Shown: positions 1,972 through 35,152 of the stretch, in pieces | Layout of the letters: each line of letters begins with the position of its first letter | Position numbering within the stretch: position 1 is the stretch's first letter | Made by a program: the position numbers and the translations under genes | Source: an uncultured Mycoplasmatota bacterium | GTDB lineage: Bacteria > Bacillota_I > Bacilli_A > RF39 > UBA660 | Direction: 5' to 3' | Length of the DNA stretch: 64,000 nucleotides | Assembly: GCA_948329525.1 (NCBI GenBank) | Contig: CAOJBM010000001.1 | Span: forward strand, 407 to 64,406 | Notes under the pieces: generated by a model | What the model saw: only the letters and a program-made list of their open reading frames with translations | Told to the model about the DNA's origin: nothing | Database searches by the model: none

Positions 1972-2143
1972 AACAGGATATGGAAAGGCACCACGAAACT
2001 TTAAAACACTTATAAAATAAGAGTTTAAATTCATCGTAGTTGCACCACCAACACTTTTCGCACTTGCGAAAAGAACCTTTTTTACACATTTTTGGGTTCT
2101 AATTTCTTAAAAAACTCTATTTTAACCTTTATTTATAAGGATT
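1972..2143. repeat. Copy 1 of a ~172-bp repeated element with palindromic core TTTTCGCA-ct-TGCGAAAA (2054-2073)
   Basis: Aligns over its whole length (about 80% identity) with 34981-35152. Shared blocks are aacaggatatgg, gcaccacgaaa, tcgtagttgcacca, ttttcgcacttgcgaaaa and ttttaccctttatttataaggatt. Confidence 0.6.
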
Positions 2144-2299
2144 TTGGTAGACCCTTTTTTGAACCTACCTACTATTTTTTCTTACTTTTTATTTATTTTG
2201 GGTATAAGCGTTATTCGCCCCCCATTTTCAATTTCTTTTCTTAACCATGGTATCCAATTAGAAAATGGATTACTAAAACTACCATGAATTATAAAATAA

Positions 2300-2986
2300 T
2301 TATTTTTCATTTAAAACATTTCCTTTCTTTGCTTCTATATTCCACTTAATTATACCATAAATATTTATGAGTAAATACCCAATTGAAACTAACAACATCA
2401 TACCAGAATTTTCTCCCTTTGATATAAATGTTATTAACCATATGGTTAAATCAATAGTGTTATTGATAAGCCATATCCACCAACATTCCTTAAATCTTAA
2501 AATACCTAATACTACAGCACACAAATTTATAATATTGGTAGATGCATCTAAAAAAGCAATTCTTTGTGAAGGAATTAAAGTTAATAAATAACTTAAAATT
2601 AAACTTCCAACTATACAAGAAATAGTTATTATAATAGAATTTTTTAAAGTAAACTCTCGTACTTTAACGTTATTATCTTTATTTAAATTTTTACTCCAAC
2701 TAATAAATCCTTGTATTTGTAATATTGGACATATAACTGCTCCAAAAATAAATAAACCATAAAGTCCATTTTTAAAAGATACATATCCTATTAACAAATA
2801 ATTAATTAATCCAAGTTTATAACTAACTCTTTTACCTTCACTAAAAAAATAAGCACATAAAAGTCCTGTAAAAAGACTTGTCCCACCAATTAAGATATCA
2901 TGAAATATTATCCCTGATATTAAAGATATTATTAAACATATTATTGTCACTATTAAATATTTTTTATTCATTTTTGAATATCCCAT
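2300..2986 (-). CDS. PnuC-like nicotinamide riboside transporter family membrane protein
   Basis: 228 aa, about 7 predicted TM helices, Trp-rich motifs (FKECWWIWLINN, IIKWN) typical of PnuC. Confidence 0.4.
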   Translation of the reverse strand: MGYSKMNKKYLIVTIICLIISLISGIIFHDILIGGTSLFTGLLCAYFFSEGKRVSYKLGLINYLLIGYVSFKNGLYGLFIFGAVICPILQIQGFISWSKNLNKDNNVKVREFTLKNSIIITISCIVGSLILSYLLTLIPSQRIAFLDASTNIINLCAVVLGILRFKECWWIWLINNTIDLTIWLITFISKGENSGMMLLVSIGYLLINIYGIIKWNIEAKKGNVLNEK

Positions 2987-3615
2987 TCAATTAAGTTATT
3001 ATTTAATTTATCTATATTATCTTGAAGAGATAAAAGATAAGGTATATTACTTATAATGTCTATACCATTAATTGCTGTAATAGAAGAGTCTAAGGGCAAT
3101 ATTTTTTGTTCATATAAATTCTGTTTTAATAAATCATTTATATTATCAACTTTATTCGCAACATAATTTTCAAAGTAATATAATGTCCACACATTTTTAG
3201 ATTTAGAGAATTTAAGTTCAAATATAGGTTCTAATTCTTCATTAATATTAACATTATCTAGTTTAAAAGTCTTTTTAAATTCATCTCTCAAAATATTGAT
3301 TCTTGTTTCTTTTGTATACCCTTTTTCTTGTTCATAAACTTTGAAATATATATTTTTGTATTCTTCAATTAATTCTTCAAAAGTAGGATTTTCATTACTA
3401 AATTTATAATTATCTATAGTGAATTTATGATTTAATTCGTAAAATGAATAAAGACAATTCCAAGTATCTGGATTTGTATTATAGAGAATAATACCAGTTT
3501 CGCCTTTATAATGAATATTAGTATATAAGTTTAAGGCACTATCTAATCTAGTAGTTATCATGTCTTTGGGAACTTTTTCTTTTAACATTTCTTTTGTAAT
3601 TATCACTTTTACCAC
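2968..3615 (-). CDS. Hypothetical protein
   Basis: 215-aa ORF, host-like codon usage, overlaps the downstream gene start. Confidence 0.4.
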   Translation of the reverse strand: MVKVIITKEMLKEKVPKDMITTRLDSALNLYTNIHYKGETGIILYNTNPDTWNCLYSFYELNHKFTIDNYKFSNENPTFEELIEEYKNIYFKVYEQEKGYTKETRINILRDEFKKTFKLDNVNINEELEPIFELKFSKSKNVWTLYYFENYVANKVDNINDLLKQNLYEQKILPLDSSITAINGIDIISNIPYLLSLQDNIDKLNNNLIEWDIQK

Positions 3616-3637
3616 TTCCTTAAATTATTATAAAACT

Positions 3638-4315
3638 TTAATTAATTTTACTTTTAACTAAATTTACTTCTAAATCTTCGATTTTTTCTTCTTTAGCATA
3701 TTTAACTAATAAATGTGCTTCATAAGTTGCTAAACTTCTTCCACTATTCCAACTATTATCGGATAAAAACCAATTATTATTATCAGTAAAAGCATATTTA
3801 GCAGGAATTAAAGTCACTTCAATCCAAGGGAGTTTCTTTTTTAAAATAGCATAACATCTTTTCAAATGAAATTCACTTGTTATTATTGTAATATTTCTAA
3901 TTGTAGACAACTCATTTTTTAAAAGTTCTAATGCATTATCAACATTTTCAAAAGTATTATTCGATGTAGTATCTAATAAAATATCTTCTTCTTTTACTCC
4001 TAGCTTAATAGCTAATTCCTTCATTTTTATAGCTTCTGCTATATTGGAATTATCTTGATTACTAACACCATTTACTCCACCCATAAAAATAATTTTTTCA
4101 AACCTTTTACTTTTATATGCTCTTACAACAGTTACTACTCTTTCTTTTAAAAGCATGCTATTTCCAAATACTAAACAATATTTACTATAATTTCCATTAT
4201 CAAAAACATTAGAATAAACAATAGCATTTATATCATCATCACTTAAATTTTCATCATTTATATTTGATAATTTCATAAAATCTTTCTTCCTACTTAACCT
4301 CATTTTGAACTTCAT
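3638..4315 (-). CDS. DUF218 (YdcF/SanA-like) domain protein
   Basis: Motifs CLVFGNS...FMGGVNGVS...LLDTTSNNTFENV are typical of the YdcF/ElyC/SanA fold. Confidence 0.5.
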   Translation of the reverse strand: MKFKMRLSRKKDFMKLSNINDENLSDDDINAIVYSNVFDNGNYSKYCLVFGNSMLLKERVVTVVRAYKSKRFEKIIFMGGVNGVSNQDNSNIAEAIKMKELAIKLGVKEEDILLDTTSNNTFENVDNALELLKNELSTIRNITIITSEFHLKRCYAILKKKLPWIEVTLIPAKYAFTDNNNWFLSDNSWNSGRSLATYEAHLLVKYAKEEKIEDLEVNLVKSKIN

Positions 4316-5132
4316 CTTTTATTAAAGCAATTACATTTTCCACCCAAATAGCAACCAATCTATCAATTGCTTCCTTCGTATAAAAGGCATAAGGTGCTGT
4401 TGCCATAATATTACCTTTATAATCATACAGTTTTGGCTCATTACCATATAATTCAAAAGCATAACTTATTTCTTCTTTTTCTGCTCGATTTAATAATAAG
4501 TTATGATTATATAACTCTCGAGGATTATTTATAACATTTATAAGAGCATTTCCACTCATTAAGTTAATTAAATCATCACTTATGAGTTTTTTTGTTTCAC
4601 TATTTGTTGCAAATGTTGGAAAGATAAAATCGGCTTTTTCAAAGATAGTTTCTATATCAACTTTTTTATAATTATTTTGTTTTTCAGTTCTATTCCAATA
4701 CATAACATTCATACCTAATGCTTGACACATAGCAGCTATTTTAGAACCTATTGTACCTAATCCAATAATACCTACAGTTTTATTTCTAATTTCAGTAGTT
4801 AACATATAATGCGAATATTCCATTTTATAATCCATTTTTGCTTGAATAGGAAATTTTTTAGCTAAACACATCATAAGAAAAACACCATATTCCGCTACTG
4901 AAACAGTAGAATATTTAGGTATATTACAGTATGTAATATTGTGTTCTTTACAATAATCTAAATCAATCCAATCAAATGCTGTTGTAGATAAACAAACTCC
5001 TTTTAGATTTTTTATTTTACTCAAATGAGTAGCATTAATGTCCCAATTATACCAATCAGGGTCGACAACTAATATTTTCTCATTTTCATCTTCTAAATAT
5101 GATGCTTTATCTAAATCAAAAGTATCTTCCAA
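4290..5132 (-). CDS. D-isomer-specific 2-hydroxyacid dehydrogenase family protein
   Basis: NAD-binding GIIGLGTIGSKIA Rossmann motif; 280 aa. Confidence 0.7.
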   Translation of the reverse strand: MEDTFDLDKASYLEDENEKILVVDPDWYNWDINATHLSKIKNLKGVCLSTTAFDWIDLDYCKEHNITYCNIPKYSTVSVAEYGVFLMMCLAKKFPIQAKMDYKMEYSHYMLTTEIRNKTVGIIGLGTIGSKIAAMCQALGMNVMYWNRTEKQNNYKKVDIETIFEKADFIFPTFATNSETKKLISDDLINLMSGNALINVINNPRELYNHNLLLNRAEKEEISYAFELYGNEPKLYDYKGNIMATAPYAFYTKEAIDRLVAIWVENVIALIKDEVQNEVK

Positions 5133-5294
5133 AAAATTATTTCACCAACTCTACTTAATTGTTTAATTTGCTCTTCTGTAAAACTTTCTTTTATATAAGT
5201 AATATAAATCTTCATACATACACTCTCCTTACAAAAATTATATACTATTTCTTTTAATTTTAAAATGACTAATTTTACAATTTGTACTAAATAT

Positions 5295-5325
5295 ATTAAT
5301 TAAAAAAGAATACTTTTAATAAGTA
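5295..5325 (-). terminator. Rho-independent terminator after rpsR
   Basis: Perfect 9-bp stem AGAATACTT-ttaat-AAGTATTCT at 5301-5325, followed on the minus strand by a U-run (plus A6 at 5295-5300). Confidence 0.5.
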
Positions 5326-5327
5326 TT

Positions 5328-5543
5328 CTATTTAACATATGGTATTAAAGCCATAAATCTTGCCCATTTGATTTGTTGTGCAATATGTCTTTGATGTTTA
5401 GCACAAGCTCCTGTCATTCTTCTTGGCATAATCTTGCCTTTTTCATTAATATATTTAGAAACTATCATAACATCTTTATAATCAACACTTTTTCCAGCAC
5501 ACATTTGGCAAATTTTCTTTTTCTTACGATAAAATTCAGCCAT
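5328..5543 (-). CDS. rpsR: 30S ribosomal protein S18
   Basis: 71 aa with Cys-containing N-terminus and MTGACAKHQRHIAQQIKWARFMALIPY, characteristic of bS18; last gene of the rpsF-ssb-rpsR order. Confidence 0.9.
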   Translation of the reverse strand: MAEFYRKKKKICQMCAGKSVDYKDVMIVSKYINEKGKIMPRRMTGACAKHQRHIAQQIKWARFMALIPYVK

Positions 5544-5559
5544 TTATATTTCCTCCTTT

Positions 5560-6027
5560 TTAAAATGGTAAGTCATCATCAGATAATGCTACTTCGTTAC
5601 CAAAATCCTTAAAAGGGTCTTCAGATACATCTGTAGTTTCAATATCTTGACTAGGCTCAAAATTGTTTTCTATTTCGTTATTTGTATTAGTTTGAAAGTC
5701 TCCACTAGTTCCTTTTGCTCCTAAAAAAGTTACATTATCAGCTAATACTTCTGTAACATATCTTTTAGTTCCATCTTGAGCATCATAACTTCTAGTTTGA
5801 ATTCTTCCTTCAACAGCTACTTGAGAACCTTTTTTACAATATTTAGCTATGTTTTCAGCTTGTTTACGCCATGCAACACAGTTAATAAAATCCGTTTCTC
5901 TTTCGCCATTTTGATTCGTATATGTTCTTGAAACAGCAACGGTAAAACTAGTACTTGAAATACCAGATGTTGTTGTTCTAAGTTCAGGGTCCCTTGTTAA
6001 TCTTCCTATTAAAATTGCTTTATTCAT
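5560..6027 (-). CDS. ssb: Single-stranded DNA-binding protein
   Basis: MNKAILIGRLTRDPELR OB-fold start and acidic C-terminal tail DDDLPF. Confidence 0.9.
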   Translation of the reverse strand: MNKAILIGRLTRDPELRTTTSGISSTSFTVAVSRTYTNQNGERETDFINCVAWRKQAENIAKYCKKGSQVAVEGRIQTRSYDAQDGTKRYVTEVLADNVTFLGAKGTSGDFQTNTNNEIENNFEPSQDIETTDVSEDPFKDFGNEVALSDDDLPF

Positions 6028-6032
6028 TATTA

Positions 6033-6323
6033 CTACTCCTCATCTAATTTAATAATTAAATGTCTTAAAACTGTTTCATCAATATTAGCTTTTCTATCTA
6101 ATTCAGCTATTGTTTCTTTATTAGCTTCAAAATTCATTACGAAGTAATAACCATTAATTTCTTTTTTTATTGGATAAGCTAATTTTTTTTCGCCAAGTTC
6201 CTTAAGTTCGTTTACTTTGCCTTTCGCACTTGTTACTATAGATTCAATATTTTTAGCAGTTTTAGAAACTTGCTCACTTTCCATAGTAGCTTTTACAATA
6301 AACATCATTTCATATTTATTCAT
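6033..6323 (-). CDS. rpsF: 30S ribosomal protein S6 (start placed at MNKYEMMFIV rather than the ORF-track upstream Met)
   Basis: MNKYEMMFIVK...GYYFVMNFEA matches bS6; AAGGAGGTG RBS precedes this ATG. Confidence 0.85.
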   Translation of the reverse strand: MNKYEMMFIVKATMESEQVSKTAKNIESIVTSAKGKVNELKELGEKKLAYPIKKEINGYYFVMNFEANKETIAELDRKANIDETVLRHLIIKLDEE

Positions 6324-6329
6324 TTTTCT

Positions 6330-6426
6330 ACACCTCCTTATGGTCAATTTCGGCTTCATTAAATGAAGCAAGGAGTAAATTAATACTCGTTAAGTATTAT
6401 AACAAATGTTAGTTAATAAGTAAATA
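6330..6426 (-). promoter_or_regulatory. Putative rpsF promoter (extended -10 TGtTATAAT, -35-like TTTACT) and structured 5' leader hairpin
   Basis: Minus strand reads tttact-17nt-tataat about 70 nt upstream of rpsF. The leader contains a GCTTCAtt-aa-atGAAGC stem-loop. rpsF leaders in Firmicutes are known S6:S18 autoregulatory RNAs. Confidence 0.3.
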
Positions 6427-6469
6427 ATTTATTTCCTTTTAAATATTATGAAGTTATAACTCTTTTAGA

Positions 6470-6779: not shown

Positions 6780-6901
6780 TTTAAACCTCCCTCGATATAA
6801 AACTTTTATACGATTGTTTTATAATCAAGGTAAATTTTTAGAAACTTTGGAATAAAAAATTATCAGCCACTTTTAAACGTAATTGATAACTTTAAAACTT
6901 T

Positions 6902-7963: not shown

Positions 7964-7965
7964 AT

Positions 7966-8364: not shown

Positions 8365-8365
8365 A

Positions 8366-9469: not shown

Positions 9470-9527
9470 TATACCACCTCAATTTCTTTACTTATTATAT
9501 AAAAAAACAACTGATTATTCAATTGTT

Positions 9528-12055: not shown

Positions 12056-12057
12056 TT

Positions 12058-21141: not shown

Positions 21142-21142
21142 T

Positions 21143-23540: not shown

Positions 23541-23867
23541 TTAATAAGATAGATAAAATAAAATACTAATTCTTTCTATAGCTGGCATATTCTTATTTGT
23601 TATATATTTTATTTTTGAAGAAAAATCTTTATAAGCTGATAAAATAATTCCAAGATAATATTCTACAAAGTATGAATAGTCATTTTTATTATTATGCCAA
23701 TTTATTGAACTATTTTCTAATGAATCATAATAAGTTTCTGTTGTTTCTTCTATTATTTTTTCAATACTAATATATTTACCAACTATATATCCAGCTTTAT
23801 ATAATAACAATAATGTCAATAATCTACTAATTCTGCCATTTCCATCTGCAAATGATACCTTAGTCAA
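23541..23867 (-). pseudogene. C-terminal fragment of a Fic-family protein, truncated immediately before the active-site motif
   Basis: It begins with (TTG)TKVSFADGNGRISRLL. That is the FxDGNGRxxR core of the Fic HPFx(D/E)GNGRxxR motif without the His-Pro, and there is an in-frame stop two codons upstream. It lies 15 bp from the stop of the serine recombinase gene. Confidence 0.55.
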
Positions 23868-23882
23868 CTTTTACTTTTAATG

Positions 23883-26024
23883 TTAAAATTGGTATCTCCA
23901 TTTAATAGTAATATCTCTATTATCAGTTTCTTTGTTATAATCACCAATATAAATTCTTTCAACAAATTCATTTAATATTTCTCTAGTAACTTCTTTTATT
24001 GAAGTATATTTTTCATATAACTTTCCAACTTCTTCAAAGTTATCTTCTGCTTGATCGTATTCATCTAATTGTTTATTAATAACTTCTAATCTTTGAGATA
24101 GATTACTTTTTTCAATTTTGAAATTTTCTTTAAACAATTTATATTCATCATAGTCTATTATACCAGTTTTTAAATCTTCATACATTCCTTGATAAATATT
24201 ATCTTTTTGAGCAATTTTCTTTTCAATATCTTTTTTTTCAATTCTTAAAGCTTCAACTTGATTATTAGTATCATCTCCAAGAACTTCTTTAATATTAATT
24301 TTATTCATAACAGATAAATCTTTATATTTTTCAATCCTATTATTTATACTTTCACAAATAATATTATCTAAAGCATCAACTCTTACACTTCGTGTATTAT
24401 TACAATCATGATATGGTTTACTCATTTCTGCACATCTAAAATATTCTACATCTTTATCATTTTTTGGAGATGATATTTTCTTAAAATTCTTATGACAACA
24501 ATCACATTCAATCATTCCAGAATACTTATTTTTTACCCCATGTCCTTTACAAGCACGAGCTTTATTTTCAATTACCTCTTGTGCCTTATTCCATGTAGCC
24601 ATATCAATAATTGGTTCATGAGTATTTTTACATACTATCCATTGTTCTTTTGGCAAATAAATAACTTTCTTATTTTTGTAACTTGGTGTTGTTGTTCTAC
24701 TTTGAGCTAAATGACCTATATAAACAACATCATTCAATATTCTTCTAACAGTAGTTCTTCCCCATACATGTTCTTTGCTCTCTTTGTTATATTTTGCATT
24801 TAAACCTTGCGACAACTTATATTCATAAGGACATGGAATATTATGTTCTTTCAAGTAAGTAATAATTTTATAAACTCCATAACCTTCATAAGCATATAAT
24901 TCAAATATCTTCTTTACAACAACACTTGCAACTGGATCTAGTATTAAATGATTTTTGTCATCTGGATCTTTCATATATCCATAAGGTGCAAATGGTCCTG
25001 TAAACTGTCCATTAGCATGTTTATCTTTGAATACATCTCTAATATTTTCAGATAAATCCTCTAAATACCATTCATTAATAAGACCATTTATTTGTCTTGA
25101 TTTTTTATTACCTTTTACTACTGTATCAGCATTATCAACTTTACCAACAAAACGAATCCCCCATTGTGGAAACAATCCATGTATATATTTTTCAACATGC
25201 TCCATATCACGAGTAAATCTAGATTGCATTTTACATAATACAATATCAGTTTTACCAACTTCACAGAATCTTAAACACTTATTATATTCTGGTCTATCAT
25301 TATCAACACCAGAGTAATCTTCATCACAAAATATTGCTACAACAATCCATCTATTAGCTTTAGCATGTTTTAATAACATAGATAATTGATTTTTAATACT
25401 TTCACTTAATTCTTCTGGAGTTTTTTTATCTTTATCTTCTTCTGATAATCTTACATAAAGAATGACATTTTTACCATACCAGTTATATTCAGAATTATAT
25501 ATTTCTCTTACATAAGCAGCTCTTTTTTTAATTTCAAAGCTTGGATCTAAAAATCTTTCATCATTTTTAATATCAAGATTTAATAAATTAATTATACTTG
25601 GAGAAACATATTCCAATTTACATTCATCCATCAAATCTTTAAGTTGTTGATTTCTTCTACTTGCAATTGTATCTTCTGTTTTTCTTTCTGATATAGCTTT
25701 TAACTTAATATTTATTTGATTTAAGTTGCCAATAAAAGTATTAAACTTATCTTTTGCCTCACTAATTATTTCATTGTATGTAGTTAATACAAGACTTACT
25801 GATTTTTCTTTTAACTCTGAAACCATCTTATTAAGGTTGATTCTTTGTATTTCATCTCCAATATAATAACCATCTTTGTATATTCCACAAACATCATATT
25901 TTAATTCATTAGCATAATCTAATAAAGTTGTAGTACGTTTACTTAATACACTTTCAATTTCTTCTGAACTTAATGCTTTATTTTCTTCATCTGTTAATCC
26001 TACATATAATACCACCTTTTCCAT
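23883..26024 (-). CDS. Large serine recombinase (integrase) with a duplicated N-terminal resolvase-like domain
   Basis: Catalytic YVRLSEED motif; recombinase domain HEPIIDMATWNKAQEVIE; CxxC/CxxC zinc-ribbon region; coiled-coil C-terminus. A degenerate upstream copy reads LYVGLTDEEN. ATG with GGTGAT RBS at 26024 is preferred over the ORF-track start at 26078. Confidence 0.85.
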   Translation of the reverse strand: MEKVVLYVGLTDEENKALSSEEIESVLSKRTTTLLDYANELKYDVCGIYKDGYYIGDEIQRINLNKMVSELKEKSVSLVLTTYNEIISEAKDKFNTFIGNLNQINIKLKAISERKTEDTIASRRNQQLKDLMDECKLEYVSPSIINLLNLDIKNDERFLDPSFEIKKRAAYVREIYNSEYNWYGKNVILYVRLSEEDKDKKTPEELSESIKNQLSMLLKHAKANRWIVVAIFCDEDYSGVDNDRPEYNKCLRFCEVGKTDIVLCKMQSRFTRDMEHVEKYIHGLFPQWGIRFVGKVDNADTVVKGNKKSRQINGLINEWYLEDLSENIRDVFKDKHANGQFTGPFAPYGYMKDPDDKNHLILDPVASVVVKKIFELYAYEGYGVYKIITYLKEHNIPCPYEYKLSQGLNAKYNKESKEHVWGRTTVRRILNDVVYIGHLAQSRTTTPSYKNKKVIYLPKEQWIVCKNTHEPIIDMATWNKAQEVIENKARACKGHGVKNKYSGMIECDCCHKNFKKISSPKNDKDVEYFRCAEMSKPYHDCNNTRSVRVDALDNIICESINNRIEKYKDLSVMNKINIKEVLGDDTNNQVEALRIEKKDIEKKIAQKDNIYQGMYEDLKTGIIDYDEYKLFKENFKIEKSNLSQRLEVINKQLDEYDQAEDNFEEVGKLYEKYTSIKEVTREILNEFVERIYIGDYNKETDNRDITIKWRYQF

Positions 26025-26267
26025 TAGTACATCACCATCCTTATATGGCGACATACCATAGCAAAATTGCTTACACATATATTATAACGTAAAAGCTTGT
26101 TTTTTTCAGCCATTATTAGCTTATTTTTGCTAGATATTTCAAAATAACTTTAACCAATTGTTTGTTTACACTTTCTTTTATTTCATTTTCACTTTTATTG
26201 TTTGGTTCTATTTCATAAACCACAAAATTTCCTTTCATTCAACATACCCCCTATTATTCTTTTTTAT

Positions 26268-26873
26268 TTAATAATTTACTTCATCAATTAGTTTTCCTTC
26301 TATAACTATTTGATAACCTTTTTTATTCTGATTACAAGTAATTAAAGTTATATATTTATCATCTTTTAAGTTTATAACTTTAGCTTTACCTATCTTTTCT
26401 ATATCATGTATATTAATAATATTATAATGATATTTAATACCATTAAAATAAACATATACATCATCATTAATTTCTAACTTATATAATTTATTAAAAAAAG
26501 CAATACTACTATTGCCTGAATGTGAATATAAAATGAAATTACCTTTTTCATTTGGATAATTACTACTATTATCTACACTAATAGCATAATTAATTGATTT
26601 AAAGTTTTTTGTACTATCTACTACTCCTCGTTTTAAATTAATTTTAGGAATTTCTAAAACAGCTGTATAAGCAATATTACTATTAGTATTTTGAATATTA
26701 GATAATTCTTGTTCTGAATTGGTTGGTTCATCTATTTCATCTATAACAGAAGTTTCTTCAATATAATTTTTTATATCATCATTATTTTTATATTCCAAAG
26801 ATTTATTATAAGCATAATAAAATGCTAAGACCATTACTCCCACTAAAATAAATAGTTTACCTAATTTTCTCAT
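26268..26873 (-). CDS. Sortase-family transpeptidase (ICE-encoded)
   Basis: Signal/TM anchor, His motif (ILYSHSG), catalytic TLITC motif, 201 aa. Confidence 0.55.
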   Translation of the reverse strand: MRKLGKLFILVGVMVLAFYYAYNKSLEYKNNDDIKNYIEETSVIDEIDEPTNSEQELSNIQNTNSNIAYTAVLEIPKINLKRGVVDSTKNFKSINYAISVDNSSNYPNEKGNFILYSHSGNSSIAFFNKLYKLEINDDVYVYFNGIKYHYNIINIHDIEKIGKAKVINLKDDKYITLITCNQNKKGYQIVIEGKLIDEVNY

Positions 26874-29176
26874 ATTTTTTTCTCCTTTGTATTATCCCAA
26901 ATAGTAATTTTTGTTGTTCCTTTATTTATATTGTTAGATACAGCAAATGTATAATTTGATTTTGTGTAATTTTCAATTGCTTGAATATCACGCTCATTTA
27001 TGACTTTATTGATAAATAAAATATAATTATCATTATTTTTGCTAATCGTTGTATCATAATTAGCAAATATACTATTTTTAAAATTATCTATTATTTCATT
27101 ATCAACTAGTTCATCATCTTCTACTACTTGAGATTGCATACTTTTAGTAGCTTTATTAATTTGTCTTTGAATATTCTGTTGAAATTGTTCTTGCATATTT
27201 TTAGCTACTTGATTCAATGCTTTTTCATTTTTATTTTGATAATTACTCTTTAGTTCTTCAACTGTATAATAATTACTAGTAATTCTTTTTAAAACTTTAG
27301 TTTCTCTATCTATTCCATTTAAATTTTTATAACTTGGAAACAAATCACTATACATATAAGTATCCCTAAAAATTGGATTACTAATTGTTGGAAAAATAAT
27401 TGTTTTATACTTTAAGGCAATTATTTCTGTTGCTGTTAATAATTCTTTTCCCATAAGTGAAATTGTTTTATTTGCTCCAACTTTCATTGGATCTGTACTT
27501 CTACTCATTGAATTTGTTTCAACAGTAGCACGACCTAATTTTTTTGAGATAATTTCTGCTGTCTCAACTGTATTTGTTTTTAGATAAACTAAAGCACAGT
27601 TATCTTGAATAATACTAGCAACATCTTTCCCATATACTTGTGAAAGTTGCCCATAACTTTGAATAAAAAATTGAAATCTCATTCGCCTGCTTCTAGCTAC
27701 TGAGACTAGTGTTTCTATCGAGTTTAAAGGAGGACAATTTGCGAATTCATCAAGAATCCACTCTACCATAACTGGTAGTTGTCCTTTGTTTTCTGGTAAG
27801 TTAGCAAATCTAGTTAAGTCTTTTGTTAACATTCCTATAATAATAGTAACTAATTGAAAGTATGCTTTGTCCTCATCTGGTACAATTATATATAAAACTG
27901 TTGGTTTACTTCCTAAATCAGTAAAATTAAATTCATTTGAACTTGTAACATTTTCTACATTTAAATCATCAAATATTGCCATTTTCTCTGCAAATACTGC
28001 TGTAATTGATTTATATGTATTTTCTGCAGCTGATAAAATTGAAGTTAAATGATCTTTAGATAAACTTCCATACTTACGACTATTAACATTTTTTTGCAAG
28101 AAAGTTTGATTTTCTTTAATTAATGAAGAGTTTTGAAACTTTTTAATACTGGAAATATTTATCTTATTTTCTGGAATTAGTCCTAATTGATAATCTTCTA
28201 AAAATACTCCTACAATACCTATAAATAATTGTTTCGCACTATTTATCCAAAATTTATCATTTGTATCTTTATCTACAAAAATTAAATCTGCAAGTGAGAT
28301 AACTAATCTATTTGTTTCTGCTTGATGTTTAGAACTCATGTTTTGATATTCTCTAATCATTAACATAAGTTCATCATTTGATTTAGTAAATAAATAATCT
28401 TTTAAAGATATATTATCTTCTAATTTTTCTTGTAGTATACCTTTTAGATACATCTTTTTATCACTAATTAAATCATTCAAATATTTTTGATTATTTATAA
28501 TAATATCAATTAGATATTCTTCTAGCACATACTTATCTTTAATCTTATTTAAATATTTCTCATCACTAATATTATCTAACTTAATTCTATTAAATTTAAT
28601 AAAATGAGCAAAAAGAAAAAGCATTGCATCATTATATTTACAATACTCTTTCCACTCATTTATAATTGGTTGCATTATATTTATTTTATTAGATTTATTT
28701 GGATTTCTAAAATCTATGGTTACAACATCATAGCCATTGTCTTTAAATACCTTACTAGTCGCATTAAAGATTTCTGCTTTTGGATCTGTAACCACTACAC
28801 TATGTTTTTCTTTAGCAGTTGCAAACATAAAACATTCTGGTATTACAACTGTTACTGACTTACCACTCCCAGTTGAACCAATGAGCAAATAATGTGGACT
28901 TTTATTATCAAAATACACACTTTCAAATTTATTATTTTTCTTTTCATACCAAACAGGAAAACCAACACTATTTATATTATTTATATCTTCTTTTACGAAG
29001 TTTCTTTCAATTTCTTTCATATCTGCAAATTTACTAGATCCATGTTCATTTTTATTTTCCAATTTTCTTTTATTTAATCTTGGCTCTAAAAATAAAATAA
29101 AAAATATAGCAAAAATCACTAATAATAATATAAATAATTCAATAGAAGTCATTGGAGCAAATTTTACACTATCCAT
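26870..29176 (-). CDS. FtsK/SpoIIIE-family conjugative coupling protein / DNA translocase (TcpA/Orf21-like)
   Basis: N-terminal TM helix, Walker A LLIGSTGSGKS, 768 aa. Confidence 0.75.
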   Translation of the reverse strand: MDSVKFAPMTSIELFILLLVIFAIFFILFLEPRLNKRKLENKNEHGSSKFADMKEIERNFVKEDINNINSVGFPVWYEKKNNKFESVYFDNKSPHYLLIGSTGSGKSVTVVIPECFMFATAKEKHSVVVTDPKAEIFNATSKVFKDNGYDVVTIDFRNPNKSNKINIMQPIINEWKEYCKYNDAMLFLFAHFIKFNRIKLDNISDEKYLNKIKDKYVLEEYLIDIIINNQKYLNDLISDKKMYLKGILQEKLEDNISLKDYLFTKSNDELMLMIREYQNMSSKHQAETNRLVISLADLIFVDKDTNDKFWINSAKQLFIGIVGVFLEDYQLGLIPENKINISSIKKFQNSSLIKENQTFLQKNVNSRKYGSLSKDHLTSILSAAENTYKSITAVFAEKMAIFDDLNVENVTSSNEFNFTDLGSKPTVLYIIVPDEDKAYFQLVTIIIGMLTKDLTRFANLPENKGQLPVMVEWILDEFANCPPLNSIETLVSVARSRRMRFQFFIQSYGQLSQVYGKDVASIIQDNCALVYLKTNTVETAEIISKKLGRATVETNSMSRSTDPMKVGANKTISLMGKELLTATEIIALKYKTIIFPTISNPIFRDTYMYSDLFPSYKNLNGIDRETKVLKRITSNYYTVEELKSNYQNKNEKALNQVAKNMQEQFQQNIQRQINKATKSMQSQVVEDDELVDNEIIDNFKNSIFANYDTTISKNNDNYILFINKVINERDIQAIENYTKSNYTFAVSNNINKGTTKITIWDNTKEKKI

Positions 29177-29177
29177 T

Positions 29178-29801: not shown

Positions 29802-29817
29802 TATCTCTCTACCCCTT

Positions 29818-30249
29818 TTACATTTCTAGTTCTTTATCTTTTCCAAATAACCAATCTTGTGCTTCTTTTTCAGAAGAAAATTCTTCAACCCAACAATCAC
29901 CAGAAGTATTATCAATTGCCACATATACATTATCTTCTTTACAGTATAATAAATCTCCTTTAAATGTTTGTTCTTTATGATTAACCCAATTATTAATATA
30001 CTCACTTGCAATTTCTTCACTTACAAAACTTATTTTTTCATTATCAAAATAAAATTCTTCTGATTCATCATCACAACAATACAAAGATTCATTTTCATTA
30101 CTTAAAATCATCATAGAAGCATAATTATTATCTTTATATAATTTTCTAGCACTTTTTAAAGCTATTTCAAAATCTTCATAAGTTTCATCATAAATAAAAC
30201 TTTCGCCTGATTCCCTATGCCAATCTGTTTCCCATATTTCAATTTTCAT
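29818..30249 (-). CDS. Hypothetical small acidic protein
   Basis: 143 aa, strongly acidic (Asp/Glu-rich). Confidence 0.35.
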   Translation of the reverse strand: MKIEIWETDWHRESGESFIYDETYEDFEIALKSARKLYKDNNYASMMILSNENESLYCCDDESEEFYFDNEKISFVSEEIASEYINNWVNHKEQTFKGDLLYCKEDNVYVAIDNTSGDCWVEEFSSEKEAQDWLFGKDKELEM

Positions 30250-30252
30250 AAC

Positions 30253-30879
30253 TTAATACTCCAAATCATTATTTTTAGATATTTCAAGCATAGTATCAAT
30301 ATTATCAATAACAGATTCTATTTTGTCTCCTGCTCTTAATCTAAGTTCTACATCATTAACAATTAAATTATATTTGCCATCTGAAATTTCTTCTGTATAT
30401 ATGTTATCAACATTAATATTAAATTTTTCAAACAATTCCTTATAGTAATTTGAAAAGCTAGACATATAATCGCTTTCTTCATCAGAGCCAAAATCATCAA
30501 ACGGAACAACTCTATTGAAATCTATTCCATAATCATCTGATACATCTAAAATAGGTTGTATTTTTTCTTCATAATATTTAATGGTATCATCAATTGATGA
30601 TCTATCTTTAAGTTCAATGTTCAAAAATTTATCAGAATAGTCTCCTACCTTAATACTTATTTCTCTACAATCATAGCTTACATTATCTCTACCAATATTA
30701 CTAAAATTTAAATCAACTAAAATAGAAGCATAACGTTGATGTTCTGCTCCTTCACTCATATAATAACATTCTGTATAAAATTTCTTTGCTTCATCTTTAT
30801 TATTAAAAACATCTAATCTATCATAACAAATTGTATATACTTTATCATTTTTACAGTTCATTTCCATTATCCACCTCAT
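30253..30879 (-). CDS. Hypothetical acidic protein
   Basis: 208 aa, acidic; overlapping start with the neighbour. Confidence 0.35.
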   Translation of the reverse strand: MRWIMEMNCKNDKVYTICYDRLDVFNNKDEAKKFYTECYYMSEGAEHQRYASILVDLNFSNIGRDNVSYDCREISIKVGDYSDKFLNIELKDRSSIDDTIKYYEEKIQPILDVSDDYGIDFNRVVPFDDFGSDEESDYMSSFSNYYKELFEKFNINVDNIYTEEISDGKYNLIVNDVELRLRAGDKIESVIDNIDTMLEISKNNDLEY

Positions 30880-31408
30880 AACTTTCTTCTTTTAGTTCTA
30901 TTAAGCTATTTTGATAAGATTTATATAGATTATCACAAACTTTATTAAATTTTATTACAATTGGTTGGAGCATTAAAACATTTTTAGAAAAAATAGTTGA
31001 ATCTAAATTTATTTCATTACATATATCCAACGATTTTTCTATTATTTCATCTTTAACACTATCATCATAAATATTATAACCTTTAGATTTATAATATTTT
31101 GTTAAATCTATTTCAGCTTCTTCTGTTAAAATATCCCCTAATTCATCTTCTGCACGTAAATAAGGCATTATTTTTTCAATGTCTTTTGATGAAAATATAT
31201 CAAATAAATTTTTTCTAATATCACCTTTTAAACTGCGCCAAGGCATAAAATCTTTTTTATAAAAATCGTTTATATACATCAATGTTTTTTTCTGTATAAA
31301 TGGCATACCTTTATAATCAGTCTTTGGTTCATGTATTTTTAGAAATTCTTCATATTCTAATATAGCTAGGTAATAATTATTTACAATATCATTCAATTCA
31401 TTACTCAT
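30851..31408 (-). CDS. Hypothetical protein
   Basis: 185 aa. Confidence 0.35.
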   Translation of the reverse strand: MSNELNDIVNNYYLAILEYEEFLKIHEPKTDYKGMPFIQKKTLMYINDFYKKDFMPWRSLKGDIRKNLFDIFSSKDIEKIMPYLRAEDELGDILTEEAEIDLTKYYKSKGYNIYDDSVKDEIIEKSLDICNEINLDSTIFSKNVLMLQPIVIKFNKVCDNLYKSYQNSLIELKEESYEVDNGNEL

Positions 31409-32139
31409 TGTATTTCAAACCCACTTTCATAACTTGTTTCCAGATTTAAATTTCTATCATCAATAAAGCGAGTTTCTAAATCACCATATCCAATAATTCT
31501 ATAATCTGATTCAATTATTTTGTTATCATTTGTTATATATTCTCCACCAAATACTTCTACTACTTCCTCTAAGCCATATTTTTTTATTTCATTTTCTAAA
31601 TCATCCAAATCCTTTTCAGAATAATGTTCAGAATAATACTCTTTCCAATCTTCACTTGTTATATGACACATTGTAGCATCAGATTCACGTACATAATCAT
31701 ATACTTCTTTTAATAGTGGAGAAACTTTACTTATTTTAGGTAAAGATATGTATTCTTCAAATGCTGATGCAACTAATACAGCAATTGCATTTTTTAGTTC
31801 ATTTTCACTTAATGGATTATTTAGATTTCCAGTTAAATTTCTAATTGTATCTTCATCATAACTTGCTATAACATTGCCTTGGTTAATTTCTCCTTTACCT
31901 ATTTCAACATCTGCTCTATAATCATCATAATCAGTTTTCCAAACATCTAACACATTTACATTAACAACTTTTATTTCTTTATTGAACCATTTTTCAAAGT
32001 CTATCCAATTATTAGAATTATATATAATTTGATCTAATCTTAATTCTGGATGATGTACATTAATATATGTATCAATACTACGCCACTTTTCTTCTCCAAT
32101 ATCTTTTCTAATTTTTTCATACTCTTGTAATATACTCAA
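31405..32139 (-). CDS. Hypothetical acidic protein
   Basis: 244 aa, acidic; 4-nt overlap coupling. Confidence 0.35.
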   Translation of the reverse strand: MSILQEYEKIRKDIGEEKWRSIDTYINVHHPELRLDQIIYNSNNWIDFEKWFNKEIKVVNVNVLDVWKTDYDDYRADVEIGKGEINQGNVIASYDEDTIRNLTGNLNNPLSENELKNAIAVLVASAFEEYISLPKISKVSPLLKEVYDYVRESDATMCHITSEDWKEYYSEHYSEKDLDDLENEIKKYGLEEVVEVFGGEYITNDNKIIESDYRIIGYGDLETRFIDDRNLNLETSYESGFEIQ

Positions 32140-32181
32140 ATTTTATCCCCCCTTTGAATCATAAATTTATTTCTTCATTTT

Positions 32182-32544
32182 CTATTTTAATTTTTCTTTT
32201 TCAACTTCAGAATCTAAATCATTACTTACTTTATCCCAATCAATTAAATTTTCAATATTAGATATAAAATCTAATACTTCCTTTTTATTTTCTAAATCTA
32301 AATTTTCAAACTCATTGATAATTTTTATATCATTAATAGTACCACCATCACATGATACATAATCATCTATATCTGGTGAAAATAATTCACAACTGATTTC
32401 TATTTTATTATTTACTAATTGAATTCCTTGTAAATGTGGATTTGTCATATCAATATTTCTATAGTCCCAATCTCCACATATAATTTCAAAAACTTTTTGT
32501 TTATTCTCTAAATTTAACATTTTATCCCCCCTTTTTTTTACCAA
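32182..32544 (-). CDS. Hypothetical small acidic protein
   Basis: 120 aa. Confidence 0.3.
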   Translation of the reverse strand: MVKKRGDKMLNLENKQKVFEIICGDWDYRNIDMTNPHLQGIQLVNNKIEISCELFSPDIDDYVSCDGGTINDIKIINEFENLDLENKKEVLDFISNIENLIDWDKVSNDLDSEVEKEKLK

Positions 32545-32594
32545 TAAAAAAGACTAAACCATTTCAAGTTCAATCTCATTTACAAAAATTATTA

Positions 32595-32822
32595 TCAATT
32601 TCCACTATTTATAAATTCGTTATTACTTTTTAAAAATTGATATATACTTACTAAAAATCTTTTATCAAAAATATATGAACTATATAATTCATCATCAATC
32701 TGATCATATATTGATAATAATATATTTCCTTTTATAAATTCAATATATCTTTCTTCTCCTAACTTGTCCAATAATATAGATAACTCTTTTTCTATATTAT
32801 CAATAATTTCATTTTTCATCAT
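32595..32822 (-). CDS. Hypothetical small protein
   Basis: 75 aa. Confidence 0.25.
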   Translation of the reverse strand: MMKNEIIDNIEKELSILLDKLGEERYIEFIKGNILLSIYDQIDDELYSSYIFDKRFLVSIYQFLKSNNEFINSGN

Positions 32823-32934
32823 AATTTTCCCCCTTAAATAAAATTATGTTTGCTATAATAACACAACAATTATAAAAATAATGTCAAATTATGTCGTAAA
32901 ATTACTTTTTTTGTTTTTATTGTATAATCAATAA

Positions 32935-34383
32935 TTAAAAATAAATATTATTGTTATATTCATTATCTGATAACATCTCATAAAATTGTTTAGCAGCATC
33001 ATCTGAATCTTTTGATAATCTTCTTAAAGCATTAGACATTTTATCATGATTCTTATATCCACCATATATAAAATAATTTTCTAAAATTTTTAATCTAAAC
33101 TTTTTTCTATTATTTTGATAATATTTATTATTTTTGTCTTTATATATAATAATTGCTATTTCTCCAATAACATCTTCAAGTGATATTTTACTGGATTTCT
33201 TATTGGTTTTTCCTTTATTGTAGTCATAATTATATAAAGCATGATTAACTATTGCATTTAAAATATAATTATCTGATTTTTCTAATTTTTCTTGAATCAT
33301 TTTATTATCAAAAGCACTTTCAAATCCAGCATTAGAAATATTATTTCTTCTATCTATATCTAAAAATATCTCATTTAATTTTTCTATACTTTGTTGTATA
33401 TCTTTTTTAGATAGTTTGATTTCATCATTAGAATCAAATAATTTATTTTTTATTTCTTTAGTGATTGTTCTTATTTCATTACCAATTTCATTTTTAGGTA
33501 AAGAACCATATTTAATGTATTTTTTATTTGTATCTCTTACTTGATTTATTAAATATCCAAGCTTTACAATATCCTCTTCTAAATCTAAATCAGAAATATT
33601 TTTTAAAGTAAAATTTCTATCCTTAGGATTAAAATAATTCTGTAAATGTTCAATATCTTCATTTATTTTTATTAAAGCAGGCCTATATAATTTATTTCTT
33701 TCTATAGATAATGAAACTTGCCTTTTCATAAAATTATTTTCATTATCATCTAACTTTAATTTATACCTATGTCCTAGTTTATTATTTTTCAGTTTATAGC
33801 ATTTATTTTTTTCAATCCATGCTATATGAAAGTGATAATTATTTTCTCTATCACAATGAAGTGATACAATCCATTCTAGATTTTTTTCTGGATCTTGATA
33901 ACCTGAATACTTTAAAAATTTAGGCATTATTTTAGTGGCCACTTCTTTTTGTAAATCTTTTATATTAATATTTTCATCTACATAATCTTGATATAAAGAT
34001 AACACTGCAAGATTAACATTACTATTTTCTAAATAATCAGACCATCTGTTTTGCATATTTTCTACCATATCATCTTTTATAAAACTTCCATCTTTTAGCA
34101 TTGCCATTTCTTCTCTTCGCATTTTATTTCTTATCATTATATCATCTGATTTTTTATCACCCATAAAATAACCTAACATAGAAGAATGAGCTTTCTTTTC
34201 ATCTCTACTATAATCATAAAAACCACAAATATATTTTTTTAATTCTTCACTATAATGTTCTTTATCTTTACACTGAATATAATACCACTCATCATTTTTA
34301 TTTTTTTTATAAATTCGTAAATTATTAGAAGGATTATTAACTGCATAATATGGATGATCTATAAATACAACTTTAGAATCCAT
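32935..34383 (-). CDS. MobV/Mob_Pre-family conjugative relaxase
   Basis: Three-His motif LHCDRENNYHFHIAWIEKN aligns with MobM HLDESTPHMHMGVVPFEN (HxDE..PHxH). 482 aa with a coiled-coil C-terminal half like MobM. Confidence 0.65.
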   Translation of the reverse strand: MDSKVVFIDHPYYAVNNPSNNLRIYKKNKNDEWYYIQCKDKEHYSEELKKYICGFYDYSRDEKKAHSSMLGYFMGDKKSDDIMIRNKMRREEMAMLKDGSFIKDDMVENMQNRWSDYLENSNVNLAVLSLYQDYVDENINIKDLQKEVATKIMPKFLKYSGYQDPEKNLEWIVSLHCDRENNYHFHIAWIEKNKCYKLKNNKLGHRYKLKLDDNENNFMKRQVSLSIERNKLYRPALIKINEDIEHLQNYFNPKDRNFTLKNISDLDLEEDIVKLGYLINQVRDTNKKYIKYGSLPKNEIGNEIRTITKEIKNKLFDSNDEIKLSKKDIQQSIEKLNEIFLDIDRRNNISNAGFESAFDNKMIQEKLEKSDNYILNAIVNHALYNYDYNKGKTNKKSSKISLEDVIGEIAIIIYKDKNNKYYQNNRKKFRLKILENYFIYGGYKNHDKMSNALRRLSKDSDDAAKQFYEMLSDNEYNNNIYF

Positions 34384-34610
34384 TACTCTTTATAAGATAA
34401 TAGTTTATCTATTCTATTTAAAATTTCTACTTGTTTATTTTTTATTTCTAAATCTTCATCTAATTTTACTAATCCTAATTCTAAAAGTTCAATCAAAAAA
34501 TCATTTATAAAACTATAATTAGTATTCTTAAATTTTATAGAAATTATTTCATCAAGTTCTATAGGTAAACTTACACTTCTTCTTTTGAAATTTTTTATTC
34601 GTTCACTCAT
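34383..34610 (-). CDS. Ribbon-helix-helix relaxosome accessory protein
   Basis: KRRSVSLPIELDEIISIKF beta-strand/helix pattern; coupled to the relaxase (ATG overlaps its stop). Confidence 0.45.
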   Translation of the reverse strand: MSERIKNFKRRSVSLPIELDEIISIKFKNTNYSFINDFLIELLELGLVKLDEDLEIKNKQVEILNRIDKLLSYKE

Positions 34611-34613
34611 AAG

Positions 34614-34958
34614 CTAATCCATAATTTTATTTACATAGAAATCATTTTCTTGATAGAAATCTATTAAACTTTTATCTCCTTTAACATCATAATTTTTTTT
34701 GAAAACCATATTAGCAAAAAATTGTTCCAATAATTTTTTTTGAATATTTTCTCTATAAATAATTCTATTTAATTTATTATTTATATCTAATAACAAATCA
34801 TTTCTTGATTCTAAATTCACTGCAGTTTCAATACATTTTCTAATTGCTTGTGCTTTACTTTTAATATTATTTTGTTTCATAAACTCTGATAACAACAATG
34901 CCTCTTTCTCATATAGCTTCACACTAAACTCCATAACCAAAATTCCCCCTTTTACCAA
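34614..34958 (-). CDS. Small DNA-binding (RHH-like) protein, first gene of the mob operon
   Basis: FSVKLYEKEALLLSEFMKQNNIKSKAQAIRKCIE pattern; 114 aa. Confidence 0.3.
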   Translation of the reverse strand: MVKGGILVMEFSVKLYEKEALLLSEFMKQNNIKSKAQAIRKCIETAVNLESRNDLLLDINNKLNRIIYRENIQKKLLEQFFANMVFKKNYDVKGDKSLIDFYQENDFYVNKIMD

Positions 34959-34980
34959 AAATAGCTAAAATATTTATTGC

Positions 34981-35152
34981 AACAGGATATGGGAATGCAC
35001 CACGAAATTTCAAAACCCTTAAAAATTAAGGATTTTTCAATCTCGTAGTTGCACCAACAACCGTTTTCGCACTTGCGAAAACAACTATTTTACCCCTTTT
35101 TATAGTTGATATTTATTTAAAAAACTTATTTTACCCTTTATTTATAAGGATT
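34981..35152. repeat. Copy 2 of the ~172-bp repeated element (palindrome TTTTCGCA-ct-TGCGAAAA at 35063-35082); candidate oriT immediately upstream of the RHH-RHH-relaxase operon
   Basis: Aligns with 1972-2143. It lies 23 bp upstream of the mob operon start, which is the typical oriT position for MobV relaxases. Confidence 0.55.

Follow-up and report, generated by a model that had tools for sequence, protein, structure and literature searches.

The stretch of DNA analysed here (64,000 nucleotides of contig CAOJBM010000001.1 from an uncultured Mycoplasmatota bacterium; hereafter the window) harbours two copies of a folded, non-coding element which probably represents the origin of transfer (oriT) of a family of integrative and conjugative elements (ICEs) of gut Bacilli, copy 1 being the same site in a 1.5-kb derivative devoid of mobility genes. 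Copy 2 precedes the relaxase operon of the ICE resident in the window and, judged by its position, its anatomy and its conservation throughout the family, is most likely the oriT of this ICE. On the comparative evidence the interpretation as oriT is well supported overall, and a widespread, unannotated ICE family of uncultured gut Bacilli thereby gains a candidate oriT and relaxosome. Since the relaxase concerned, a protein of 482 amino acids (aa), is missed by standard relaxase profiles, such ICEs would be invisible to current mobility typing. Origins of transfer and integrative hitchers relying on an oriT only are already known in kind (bioRxiv 10.64898/2026.01.13.699239); new are the relaxase and oriT family, its host lineage, and the extreme reduction of a cassette whose ends match the recombinase-side end of an ICE.

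Anatomy, folding and conservation of the element

In BLASTN comparison, copy 1 (1972–2197) and copy 2 (34981–35204) share 78.6 % identity over 229 columns (E 8e-46). A previous sequence-only reading of the same DNA had described a repeat of 172 bp and about 80 % identity at 1972–2143 and 34981–35152; both intervals and their identity are borne out (144 of 175 aligned columns identical), the repeat extending to about 226 bp, and the hairpin TTTTCGCA-ct-TGCGAAAA reported at that time is present in both copies. The 16-nt core of this palindrome, with up to 3 mismatches, matches four times in the window (0.32 expected). The covariance model of the family yields 127.8 bits for copy 2 (34978–35086) and 108.7 bits for copy 1 (1969–2077) on the minus strand, the opposite-strand matches over both copies being weak (27.1 and 16.4 bits); no third copy was detected in the 64-kb window, the best score elsewhere amounting to 12.8 bits. 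As nearly all genes of the window (GC content about 25 %) are encoded on the minus strand, the element is read on this strand.

Copy 2 ends 23 nt before the TTG codon (34958) that opens the longest open reading frame (ORF) of the first of two ribbon-helix-helix (RHH)-like genes, which is the distance given by the sequence-only reading; the ATG codon at 34934, located after the ribosome-binding site AAGGGGG, is the likelier start and extends the distance to 47 nt. Element and next gene are separated by 25–80 nt. Copy 1 lies, as first read, between a pnuC-like gene (2300–2986; Pfam NMN_transporter) and a P-loop gene (1287–1892), and its sequence is 100 % identical in two further loci (L077 and L085).

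From 5' to 3' on the minus strand, the element consists of short repeats, an 18-nt hairpin (TTTTCGC-AAGT-GCGAAAA), a long bulged hairpin and a single-stranded tail (ATTCCCATATCCTGTT). Within its 5' part, copy 2 contains the 7-mer ATAGTTG in two direct, one inverted and one further direct repeat; at the equivalent positions copy 1 carries repeats of the GGTTC type, which are also found in ICEs (L106 and L039). A small hairpin (CCTTATAAATAAAGG) is located in the 5' part of both copies. Two promoter-like sites were found on the minus strand of copy 2 (35179>35150 and 35157>35128), none on that of copy 1. On the plus strand, a T-rich run follows the 18-nt hairpin (2054–2083 and 35063–35092), antisense to all genes; this combination scores like an intrinsic terminator (1 found, 0.1 expected).

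The sequence-only reading had proposed a covariation analysis for the palindromic hairpin; in the stem of the long hairpin, covariation proved strong: both sides change in 26 of 33 pairs (52 distinct rows of a model-based alignment), 86.4 % of its cells are paired compared to 45–56 % with partners slid by 1–3 columns, and not one of 500 shuffled alignments reached the observed values on any of five measures. Because model-fitted alignments are biased towards structure, the cleaner result is the same trend in an ungapped alignment of an 18-sequence subfamily which was not fitted to the model. RNAalifold, applied to a plain MAFFT alignment of all subfamilies, recovered the 18-nt hairpin alone, the arms of the long hairpin being misaligned, and the model-based alignment was used instead. 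Many pairs of the stem are G-U pairs, and the minus strand folds more stably in 42 of 48 sequences (mean folding energy -32.6 versus -27.6 kcal/mol for the plus strand), so that the minus strand is the probable folding strand of the long hairpin.

A scan of species-representative genomes with the 18-mer retrieved at least 118 loci. The whole element was recognized in at least about 60 loci from 58 assemblies, recorded as metagenome-assembled genomes of uncultured gut Bacilli, Tenericutes or Mollicutes; 56 of the 58 contain at least one copy and two at least two, with none above two among the matches listed. Although the tail lies outside the search key, (C)ATATCCTGTT is kept by the majority of the 48 distinct sequences; members of a distant clade have TTATGCCCATT in its place. 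Three types of gene context were distinguished. Class A (about 29 loci) displays a conserved synteny of primase-like gene, 153-aa gene, element, two successive RHH-like genes and the gene for the 482-aa protein, an order that holds down to 34 % identity of the latter; in the most distant class A clade, VirB4-like and M23 peptidase genes replace the primase-like gene upstream. Class B (15 loci) comprises a large serine recombinase (Pfam Resolvase and Recombinase), a small ORF, the element, a homologue of the first RHH gene (about 70 % identity) and unrelated cargo, without a relaxase. In class C (15 loci including copy 1), the element precedes unrelated genes, among them neither RHH genes nor a relaxase. 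The element is thus retained while the downstream genes differ fully between classes (RHH genes, P-loop genes, recombinase, defence candidates). All relaxase-less loci, i.e. the 15 with the first RHH gene only and the 15 without RHH genes, keep the hairpins, and all but two keep the tail (L119 is truncated, L080 has a mutated tail). This retention fits a cis-acting DNA site.

Copy 2 precedes the RHH-RHH-relaxase genes by 23–47 nt, a position shared by about 29 related loci and by the relaxase-anchored loci; in all three look-ups for which relaxase homologues, not the element, served as bait, the element was in the class A position. The earlier statement that copy 2 occupies the oriT location is supported by position, anatomy and conservation. 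Among viral contigs, the 18-mer scan yielded one true homologue and one chance match, a tail-based pattern only chance matches within genes, and a relaxase-based scan no relaxase homologue; PLSDB plasmids gave no match by DNA or protein. The viral homologue (L002; IMG/VR UViG 3300011008_002676) is a viral-classed contig with a distant-clade element upstream of a 55-aa RHH gene.

Among the relaxase-less loci, one small-element layout is recurrent, consisting of a large serine recombinase, an ORF of about 55 aa (MNYFFKFL...), the oriT-like element, one RHH gene and variable cargo, e.g., a sigma-70 region-4 protein, without a relaxase (L018, L020, L024, L034, L038, L063, L069, L071, L084, L088, L108, L113). 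The 18-mer also occurs in unrelated settings lacking the rest of the element, namely as part of a tandem array in Desulfonema magnum (L105, 6533–7420) and within a conserved intergenic element (TATAGGAGAGGATGCCTGAAAGGCC...) of sphingomonads (Sphingobium L003, L009, L028, L093, L096).

Candidate nick site and putative relaxase

Relaxases of the MOBP type nick at the consensus 5'-(C/T)ATCCTG(C/T)-3' just 3' of an inverted repeat, as in RP4, VirD2 and Tfs4 (PMC3772185). In the present element, the covarying inverted repeat is located 5' of the conserved CATATCCTGTT on the same strand; the tail TATCCTGT equals the MOBP consensus with the inverted repeat directly 5' of it, the distant clade having TATGCCCATT, and the minus strand from 35060 to 34975 contains ATCCTGTT. 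The candidate nick is placed, with moderate confidence, on the minus strand at ATCCTG/T, between 34983 and 34982 (1974 and 1973 in copy 1). This position is favoured because the tail is conserved independently of the search key, because the G-U pairs of the long hairpin put folding on the minus strand, and because relaxase-less copies keep the hairpin and, with two exceptions, the tail. By analogy with the conjugative plasmid pLS20, a nick on the plus strand just 3' of the 18-nt hairpin is the less likely candidate, albeit one of some weight. Homology of orphan copies was also considered to end always at the nick, as relaxase-mediated recombination would leave it; copy 1 compared with copy 2 does show such an end, but the general rule was rejected, several orphan copies remaining similar for about 28 nt past the candidate nick. 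The downstream flank of copy 1 resembles that of L083.

For pLS20 of Bacillus subtilis, the one MOBL system characterised, the relaxosome is arranged in the order oriT-aux1-aux2-rel, with Aux2 binding to 7-mer repeats (PMC5675868), and the nick maps to the border of the inverted repeat GGCTTTTTGCtgccGCAAAAAGCC (T5GC-N4-GCA5; PMC5313138), in the template strand, MOBL being reported as closest to MOBP (PMC5313138). The module of the window likewise consists of the putative oriT, two RHH-like genes and the relaxase gene, the RHH assignment being suggested weakly by the NikR RHH domain as best PDB profile match (E 0.02–0.04). It resembles that of pLS20 (oriT_LS20, Aux1, Aux2, Rel_LS20) in module order and co-directional conjugation genes, in the 7-mer repeats within the 5' half of the oriT, in a T-run/GC hairpin with a 4-nt loop comparable to the 18-nt hairpin, and in that distant members of the relaxase family match Pfam MobL. 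In contrast to pLS20, the relaxase of the window has no significant MobL match and belongs to an ICE with a serine recombinase rather than to a plasmid; furthermore, the pLS20 nick is on the template strand, GC-rich and free of ATCCTG, whereas the conserved motif of the window is on the coding strand. The MOBP oriTs (RP4 TraI, Ti VirD2, Helicobacter pylori Tfs4 VirD2) share with the element a consensus 3' of an inverted repeat and upstream of the relaxase gene, but differ in a hairpin-to-motif spacing of about 8 nt, compared to about 14 nt before the predicted cleavage site of the window, whose relaxase is moreover unassignable to MOBP by sequence and is encoded in a Gram-positive-type host. 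The rival nick sites (coding-strand ATCCTG versus template-strand hairpin edge) bear on the relationship between MOBL and MOBP relaxases.

The 482-aa protein is a putative relaxase, presumably of the HUH fold, and carries three histidines (H176, H184, H186) that are invariant across its family. The family motif HTDTDNLHFH is very close to motif III of RP4 TraI; in more distant full-length members it reads SLHTDTDNLHFH. Sequence and profile searches of the protein against Pfam, NCBIfam, annotated PHROG and PDB gave no match, a Foldseek search against PDB nothing significant, and none of its 233 close homologues contains a Pfam domain. The family is small and isolated, since an exhaustive profile search of 1.84 billion representatives returned only 124 clusters. 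Among 16 distant homologues, 9 match Pfam MobL (PF18555, best 1.3e-13) and the MobA/VirD2-like Relaxase (PF03432, best 3.1e-06); the link of the window protein to these families is transitive, via such homologues. The relaxase had been taken for a MobV protein, of which the Mob_Pre domain and the HxDE..PHxH motif are the signature. This signature is lacking in the window protein, no Mob_Pre match was obtained for it or the 16 distant homologues, and the gene order is of the pLS20 MOBL type, so that the assignment to MobV should be replaced by an unclassified MOBL/MOBP-like family. Of the RHH-like genes, the first is kept beside the element in 15 relaxase-less loci, and the second is conserved in relatives between the first and the relaxase gene.

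Transfer would proceed as follows: the two RHH proteins may bind to the repeat-rich 5' part, with its 7-mers, by parallel with Aux2 of pLS20; the relaxase would recognize the hairpin region and cut one strand, most likely the minus strand, where ATCCTG/T follows the long hairpin at a distance of about 14 nt; and the nicked strand would pass through the ICE's own secretion system. Four points weigh against interpreting the element as this kind of oriT. The 18-mer, which in relaxase-anchored loci is either exact or TTTTGGCAAGTGCCAAAA (a symmetric double change in one lineage), served as search key, and its invariance is partly an artefact. The pLS20 nick on the template strand by a similar inverted repeat means that the ATCCTG match could be coincidental. 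Given the promoter-like sites upstream of its hairpins, the element of copy 2 is probably also transcribed as a leader. Finally, the family is known from sequence, on which the predictions of nicking, of the strand that is transferred, of what the recombinase does and of actual mobilisation are based.

The mobile cassette carrying copy 1

The sequence-only reading placed copy 1 in the backbone and considered it as a possible orphan oriT. Copy 1 does lack a relaxase of its own and could, as a second site, be acted on in trans; the backbone location did not hold, as copy 1 sits in a 1.5-kb insertion and is the predicted oriT of a minimal, recently mobile cassette. The cassette is bounded by imperfect 22-bp inverted repeats (GAATAGAGCATATACCCAAAAT and GAATAACGCTTATACCCAAAAT), and its gene content is limited to two P-loop genes, without relaxase and mating-pore genes. 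Locus L077 is 99.8–100 % identical to window positions 698–2234 and continues into a GH31 glycosidase gene, L085 is 100 % identical to 1497–2223 and continues into a transketolase-side region, and both flanks are unrelated to the pnuC flank of the window. The insertion polymorphism is completed by Logan contig L121, which is the empty site: it contains the pnuC gene, GAAAATGGGGGGTAGAAAAC and a 164-aa serine hydrolase gene (PF06821 Ser_hydrolase), and is 100 % identical to window positions 2218–2987 and 1–704. TGGGGGG occurs once in L121 and twice in the window, L121 positions 764–770 aligning to both 2224–2218 and 704–698 of the window; the cassette is inserted in a G-tract of the serine hydrolase gene. 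In L121 itself (678–1234), the serine hydrolase frame is broken at a run of six G, a 31-aa ORF ending with TAG and the 164-aa remainder lying in another frame. One added G would restore a single ORF; the tract may be phase-variable, the gene may be a pseudogene, or the assembly may be wrong at this point.

Sister cassettes with an oriT-like element and different cargo were detected in L026 (2.17 kb, perfect 22-bp repeats, G9 on either side) and L043 (2.3 kb, same ends, G7 on either side), and L119 represents a truncated relic. PADLOC assigned the cargo of L026 (5668–6913) to candidate PDC-S04 (Fic-like, E 1e-69), with a weak LmuA-like match, and that of L043 (186–1190) to candidate PDC-S02 (YhcG-like PD-(D/E)xK, E 4e-104); the two P-loop genes of the window cassette gave no PADLOC match. 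No recombinase or transposase gene was found in the window cassette or these two sisters. A reading of the flanking G-runs as ribosome-binding sites or poly-G sequencing artefacts was ruled out, because in independent assemblies the runs always adjoin the inverted repeats with the same strandedness and because the empty site contains TGGGGGG only once.

When metagenomes were scanned with the terminal repeat, both ends of the window cassette turned up in other samples (L131, L152), along with four loci where ATTTTGGGTATAAGCTACATTC and a subsequent G-run delimit an element at one end. Among the latter, three (L136, L147, L151) are alike in that a terminal repeat of the oriT-end type is located 18 nt past the stop codon of a 661-aa large serine recombinase, preceded in L136 and L151 by sortase and coupling-protein genes, a region that the short contig L147 does not reach; L145 contains a 156-aa recombinase remnant and the terminal repeat only. 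Coupling protein, sortase and recombinase of L151 share 74, 65 and 35 % identity, respectively, with those of the window ICE. At copy 1, the oriT-end terminal repeat borders on what is left of the 153-aa gene at its 3' end. Most simply, the cassettes would have arisen by deletion from a sister ICE lineage and have kept the two recombinase-recognized ends and the oriT.

In trans, a recombinase of the 661-aa type would excise the cassette by recombining the G-tract cores, leaving a circle junction that would read GCTCTATTC-TGGGGGG-CGAATAACGC (…CTATTC-TGGGGGG-CGAATAACG…). A relaxosome, likewise in trans, would nick the cassette oriT, and the transferred cassette would then insert in another G-tract. 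The far end of the sister ICE (L136, L151) may carry a G-run plus CGAATnnnGCTTATACCCAAAAT. It may tentatively be proposed, with somewhat less than even confidence, that the cassette and its sisters (1.5–2.3 kb) are "double hitchers", combining the oriT of a MOBL-like ICE with ends read by a G-tract-targeting serine recombinase and depending on others for transfer and insertion. Were this true, small cargo, candidate phage-defence genes among it, would be carried by the cassettes from one species of uncultured gut Bacilli to another.

Evidence against the overall interpretation, as far as the cassette is concerned, comes from several sides. The 661-aa recombinase is connected to the repeat by adjacency, the left end of the sister ICE lying outside the sequences covered; the cassette terminal repeat is absent from the window's own ICE, the recombinase of which is of another type (35 % identity to the 661-aa protein); and copy 1 reads CTTTCC instead of the ATTCCC of copy 2 before the nick motif, in addition to GGTTC in place of ATAGTTG repeats. 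It is doubtful that the resident ICE serves copy 1, since the 5' repeats differ, the spacer before the nick differs at two positions and the recombinase is of a different type. If the resident relaxase did nick the chromosomal copy 1, the Hfr-like mobilisation put forward by the sequence-only reading would follow.

Integrative elements with an oriT but without relaxase or mating-pore genes have been described as iOriTs; in the survey concerned, serine-recombinase integrases account for <1 %, islands without recombinase vestiges for 6 % and integrative mobilisable elements with <5 genes for 0.5 % (bioRxiv 10.64898/2026.01.13.699239). Mimics of oriT are also known from staphylococcal plasmids of the pWBG749 family (PMC8136818). 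Among such hitchers, carriage of a cognate RHH factor (SmpO) confers mobilisation. Both are, like the cassette, hitchers that keep only the oriT of their helper, and the class B loci (recombinase, oriT, one RHH gene) parallel the SmpO-carrying elements. With its defined ends, duplicated core, empty site, predicted oriT and lack of relaxase and mating-pore genes, the region 705–2217 conforms to an iOriT. It differs in that its own integrase, present in most described iOriTs, is absent, in having two genes only, and in belonging to another lineage and another relaxase family. With two genes and neither recombinase nor relaxase, the cassette would be a hitcher of unusually small size in its integrated state, and its empty site is documented; it would lower the known size limit of integrative mobilisable elements and offers a concrete system in which to examine whether parasitism can extend to both transfer and integration.

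The transposons Tn4451 (TnpX) and Tn5397 (TndX) possess an outward-directed recombinase gene at one end, ends with imperfect inverted repeats, a short direct-repeat core and loose targets. The arrangement in the present elements is alike in end-located outward recombinase, imperfect inverted repeats, repeated core and loose target choice; it differs in a G-tract core (TGGGGGG; 4–10 G) instead of GA, in the missing recombinase of the cassette, and in the recombinase-repeat link by adjacency.

Alternative explanations and further features of the window

A structured 5' leader or small RNA of the minus strand, the hairpins of which act as RNA on downstream genes, had been considered previously and is improbable. 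Both copies do precede a minus-strand gene, the covariation includes G-U pairs on the transcribed strand, promoter-like sites lie upstream of the copy 2 hairpins, and by eye the tail ATTCCC could pair with a GGGAAT located within the ribosome-binding region of copy 2. This pairing is, however, absent from other subfamilies, and copy 1 lacks a minus-strand promoter-like site. Rfam 15 yielded no match at gathering score and permissive thresholds only matches at chance level (E above 1) on the two copies; a search for tRNA and tmRNA found nothing. The idea is further weakened by the conservation of the element in front of entirely different downstream genes across the classes, about 15 loci without RHH genes and relaxase keeping the hairpins and nearly all tails, and by the identity of the tail with a known DNA nick consensus. 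Slightly less probable still is a single-strand origin, in particular the 18-nt hairpin, for priming of the complementary strand, perhaps read by the adjacent primase-like protein; the same element might at once serve as oriT. Being non-coding, folded on one strand in particular and placed beside a Toprim/zinc-finger primase gene, it would suit this purpose, and at the extreme 3' end of the predicted transferred strand it would be well placed for priming. Yet the element is kept by the distant clade with VirB4 and M23 peptidase genes instead of a primase upstream and by primase-less cassettes, by eye it bears no likeness to the ssoA loop motif, and the MOBP-like motif would be left unexplained.

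That the element is nothing but promoter and operator of the relaxase operon, with the palindromes as sites of RHH autoregulators and no nick, has a still smaller chance. The perfect 8-2-8 palindrome with a symmetric change as the sole one observed, the repeated 7-mers and the promoter-like sites would agree with it; a G-U-tolerant, bulged and covarying long stem is unexpected for a double-stranded operator, orphan copies keep the element without RHH gene or operon, and the ICE needs an oriT, no other being seen beside the relaxase gene. The least probable is a dispersed repeat resembling a miniature inverted-repeat transposable element (MITE), another proposal of the sequence-only reading. 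Copy 1 does reside within a small element bearing terminal inverted repeats, and for this carrier, a non-autonomous mobile cassette, the proposal was right in spirit. The 226-bp repeat itself has neither terminal repeats of its own nor a target duplication, and its position relative to the relaxase operon is fixed. Nor were the dozens of scattered copies seen that would speak for a MITE: the window contains two, and representative assemblies at most two each among the matches listed. The interpretation as oriT is accordingly preferred to these alternatives.

The ICE surrounding copy 2 encodes a coupling protein, a VirB4-like ATPase, a sortase, an LPXTG adhesin and a 731-aa large serine recombinase, and borders on tilS and ftsH. 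Coordinates of the features discussed are compiled in Table 1.

Table 1 Features of the two element copies, the cassette and the resident ICE in the window
Feature	Position	Strand	Remarks
Copy 2, putative ICE oriT region	34981..35204	-	Between 153-aa gene and first RHH gene; BLASTN, covariance model, same position in relatives
Copy 1, same element in small cassette	1972..2197	-	P-loop genes downstream, not RHH genes and relaxase; BLASTN, covariance model
18-nt hairpin/palindrome TTTTCGCAAGTGCGAAAA	35064..35081 (copy 2); 2055-2072 (copy 1)	-	
Long hairpin	34996..35053 (copy 2); 1987-2044 (copy 1)	-	Stem covariation
Conserved tail CATATCCTGTT	34981..34991 (copy 2); 1972-1982 (copy 1)	-	Kept in most of 48 distinct family sequences
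5' part: 7-mer repeats, small hairpin CCTTATAAATAAAGG, promoter-like sites	35087..35204 (copy 2); 2078-2197 (copy 1)	-	
Putative relaxase, 482 aa, unclassified MOBL/MOBP-like family	32935..34383	-	
First RHH-like accessory gene	34614..34934 (longest ORF from 34958)	-	NikR RHH domain best PDB profile match, E 0.023
Second RHH-like accessory gene	34383..34610	-	NikR RHH domain best PDB profile match, E 0.035
ICE context: large serine recombinase (23883-26078), sortase (26268-26873), coupling protein (26870-29176)	23883..29176	-	Pfam, NCBIfam
ICE context upstream of copy 2: 153-aa gene and Toprim/zinc-finger primase-like gene	35176..36602	-	Pfam, conserved synteny
Non-autonomous cassette, 1513 bp: copy 1 and two P-loop genes (1287-1892, 767-1315)	705..2217	-	
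Terminal inverted repeat, P-loop-gene end, GAATAGAGCATATACCCAAAAT	705..726	+	19 of 22 bases match other end
Terminal inverted repeat, oriT end, ATTTTGGGTATAAGCGTTATTC	2195..2216	+	
Duplicated core/target CCCCCCA	698..704; second copy 2218-2224	+	Empty site has one copy
Serine hydrolase gene, 3' part, split by cassette	234..626 (5' part ~2225-2310)	-	Intact-locus comparison with L121

The 731-aa serine recombinase is followed, about 15 nt past its stop codon, by the start of an ORF (23541–23867) that reads ...SFADGNGRISRLL..., i.e. the core motif of a Fic-domain protein without the N-terminal part. The right junction of the ICE is probably located at about 23868–23885, inside a fic-like gene. 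Directly downstream of the relaxase gene, the region 29818–32822 contains small, very acidic ORFs; if the minus strand is transferred, this would be the leading region and the acidic ORFs would be candidates for anti-restriction or anti-defence functions. Outside these subjects, a GC-rich direct repeat of 100 nt (GGGCGGACGGCGCC...; 90 % identity) was noticed at 59037–59136 and 60671–60770, in a window of 25 % GC.

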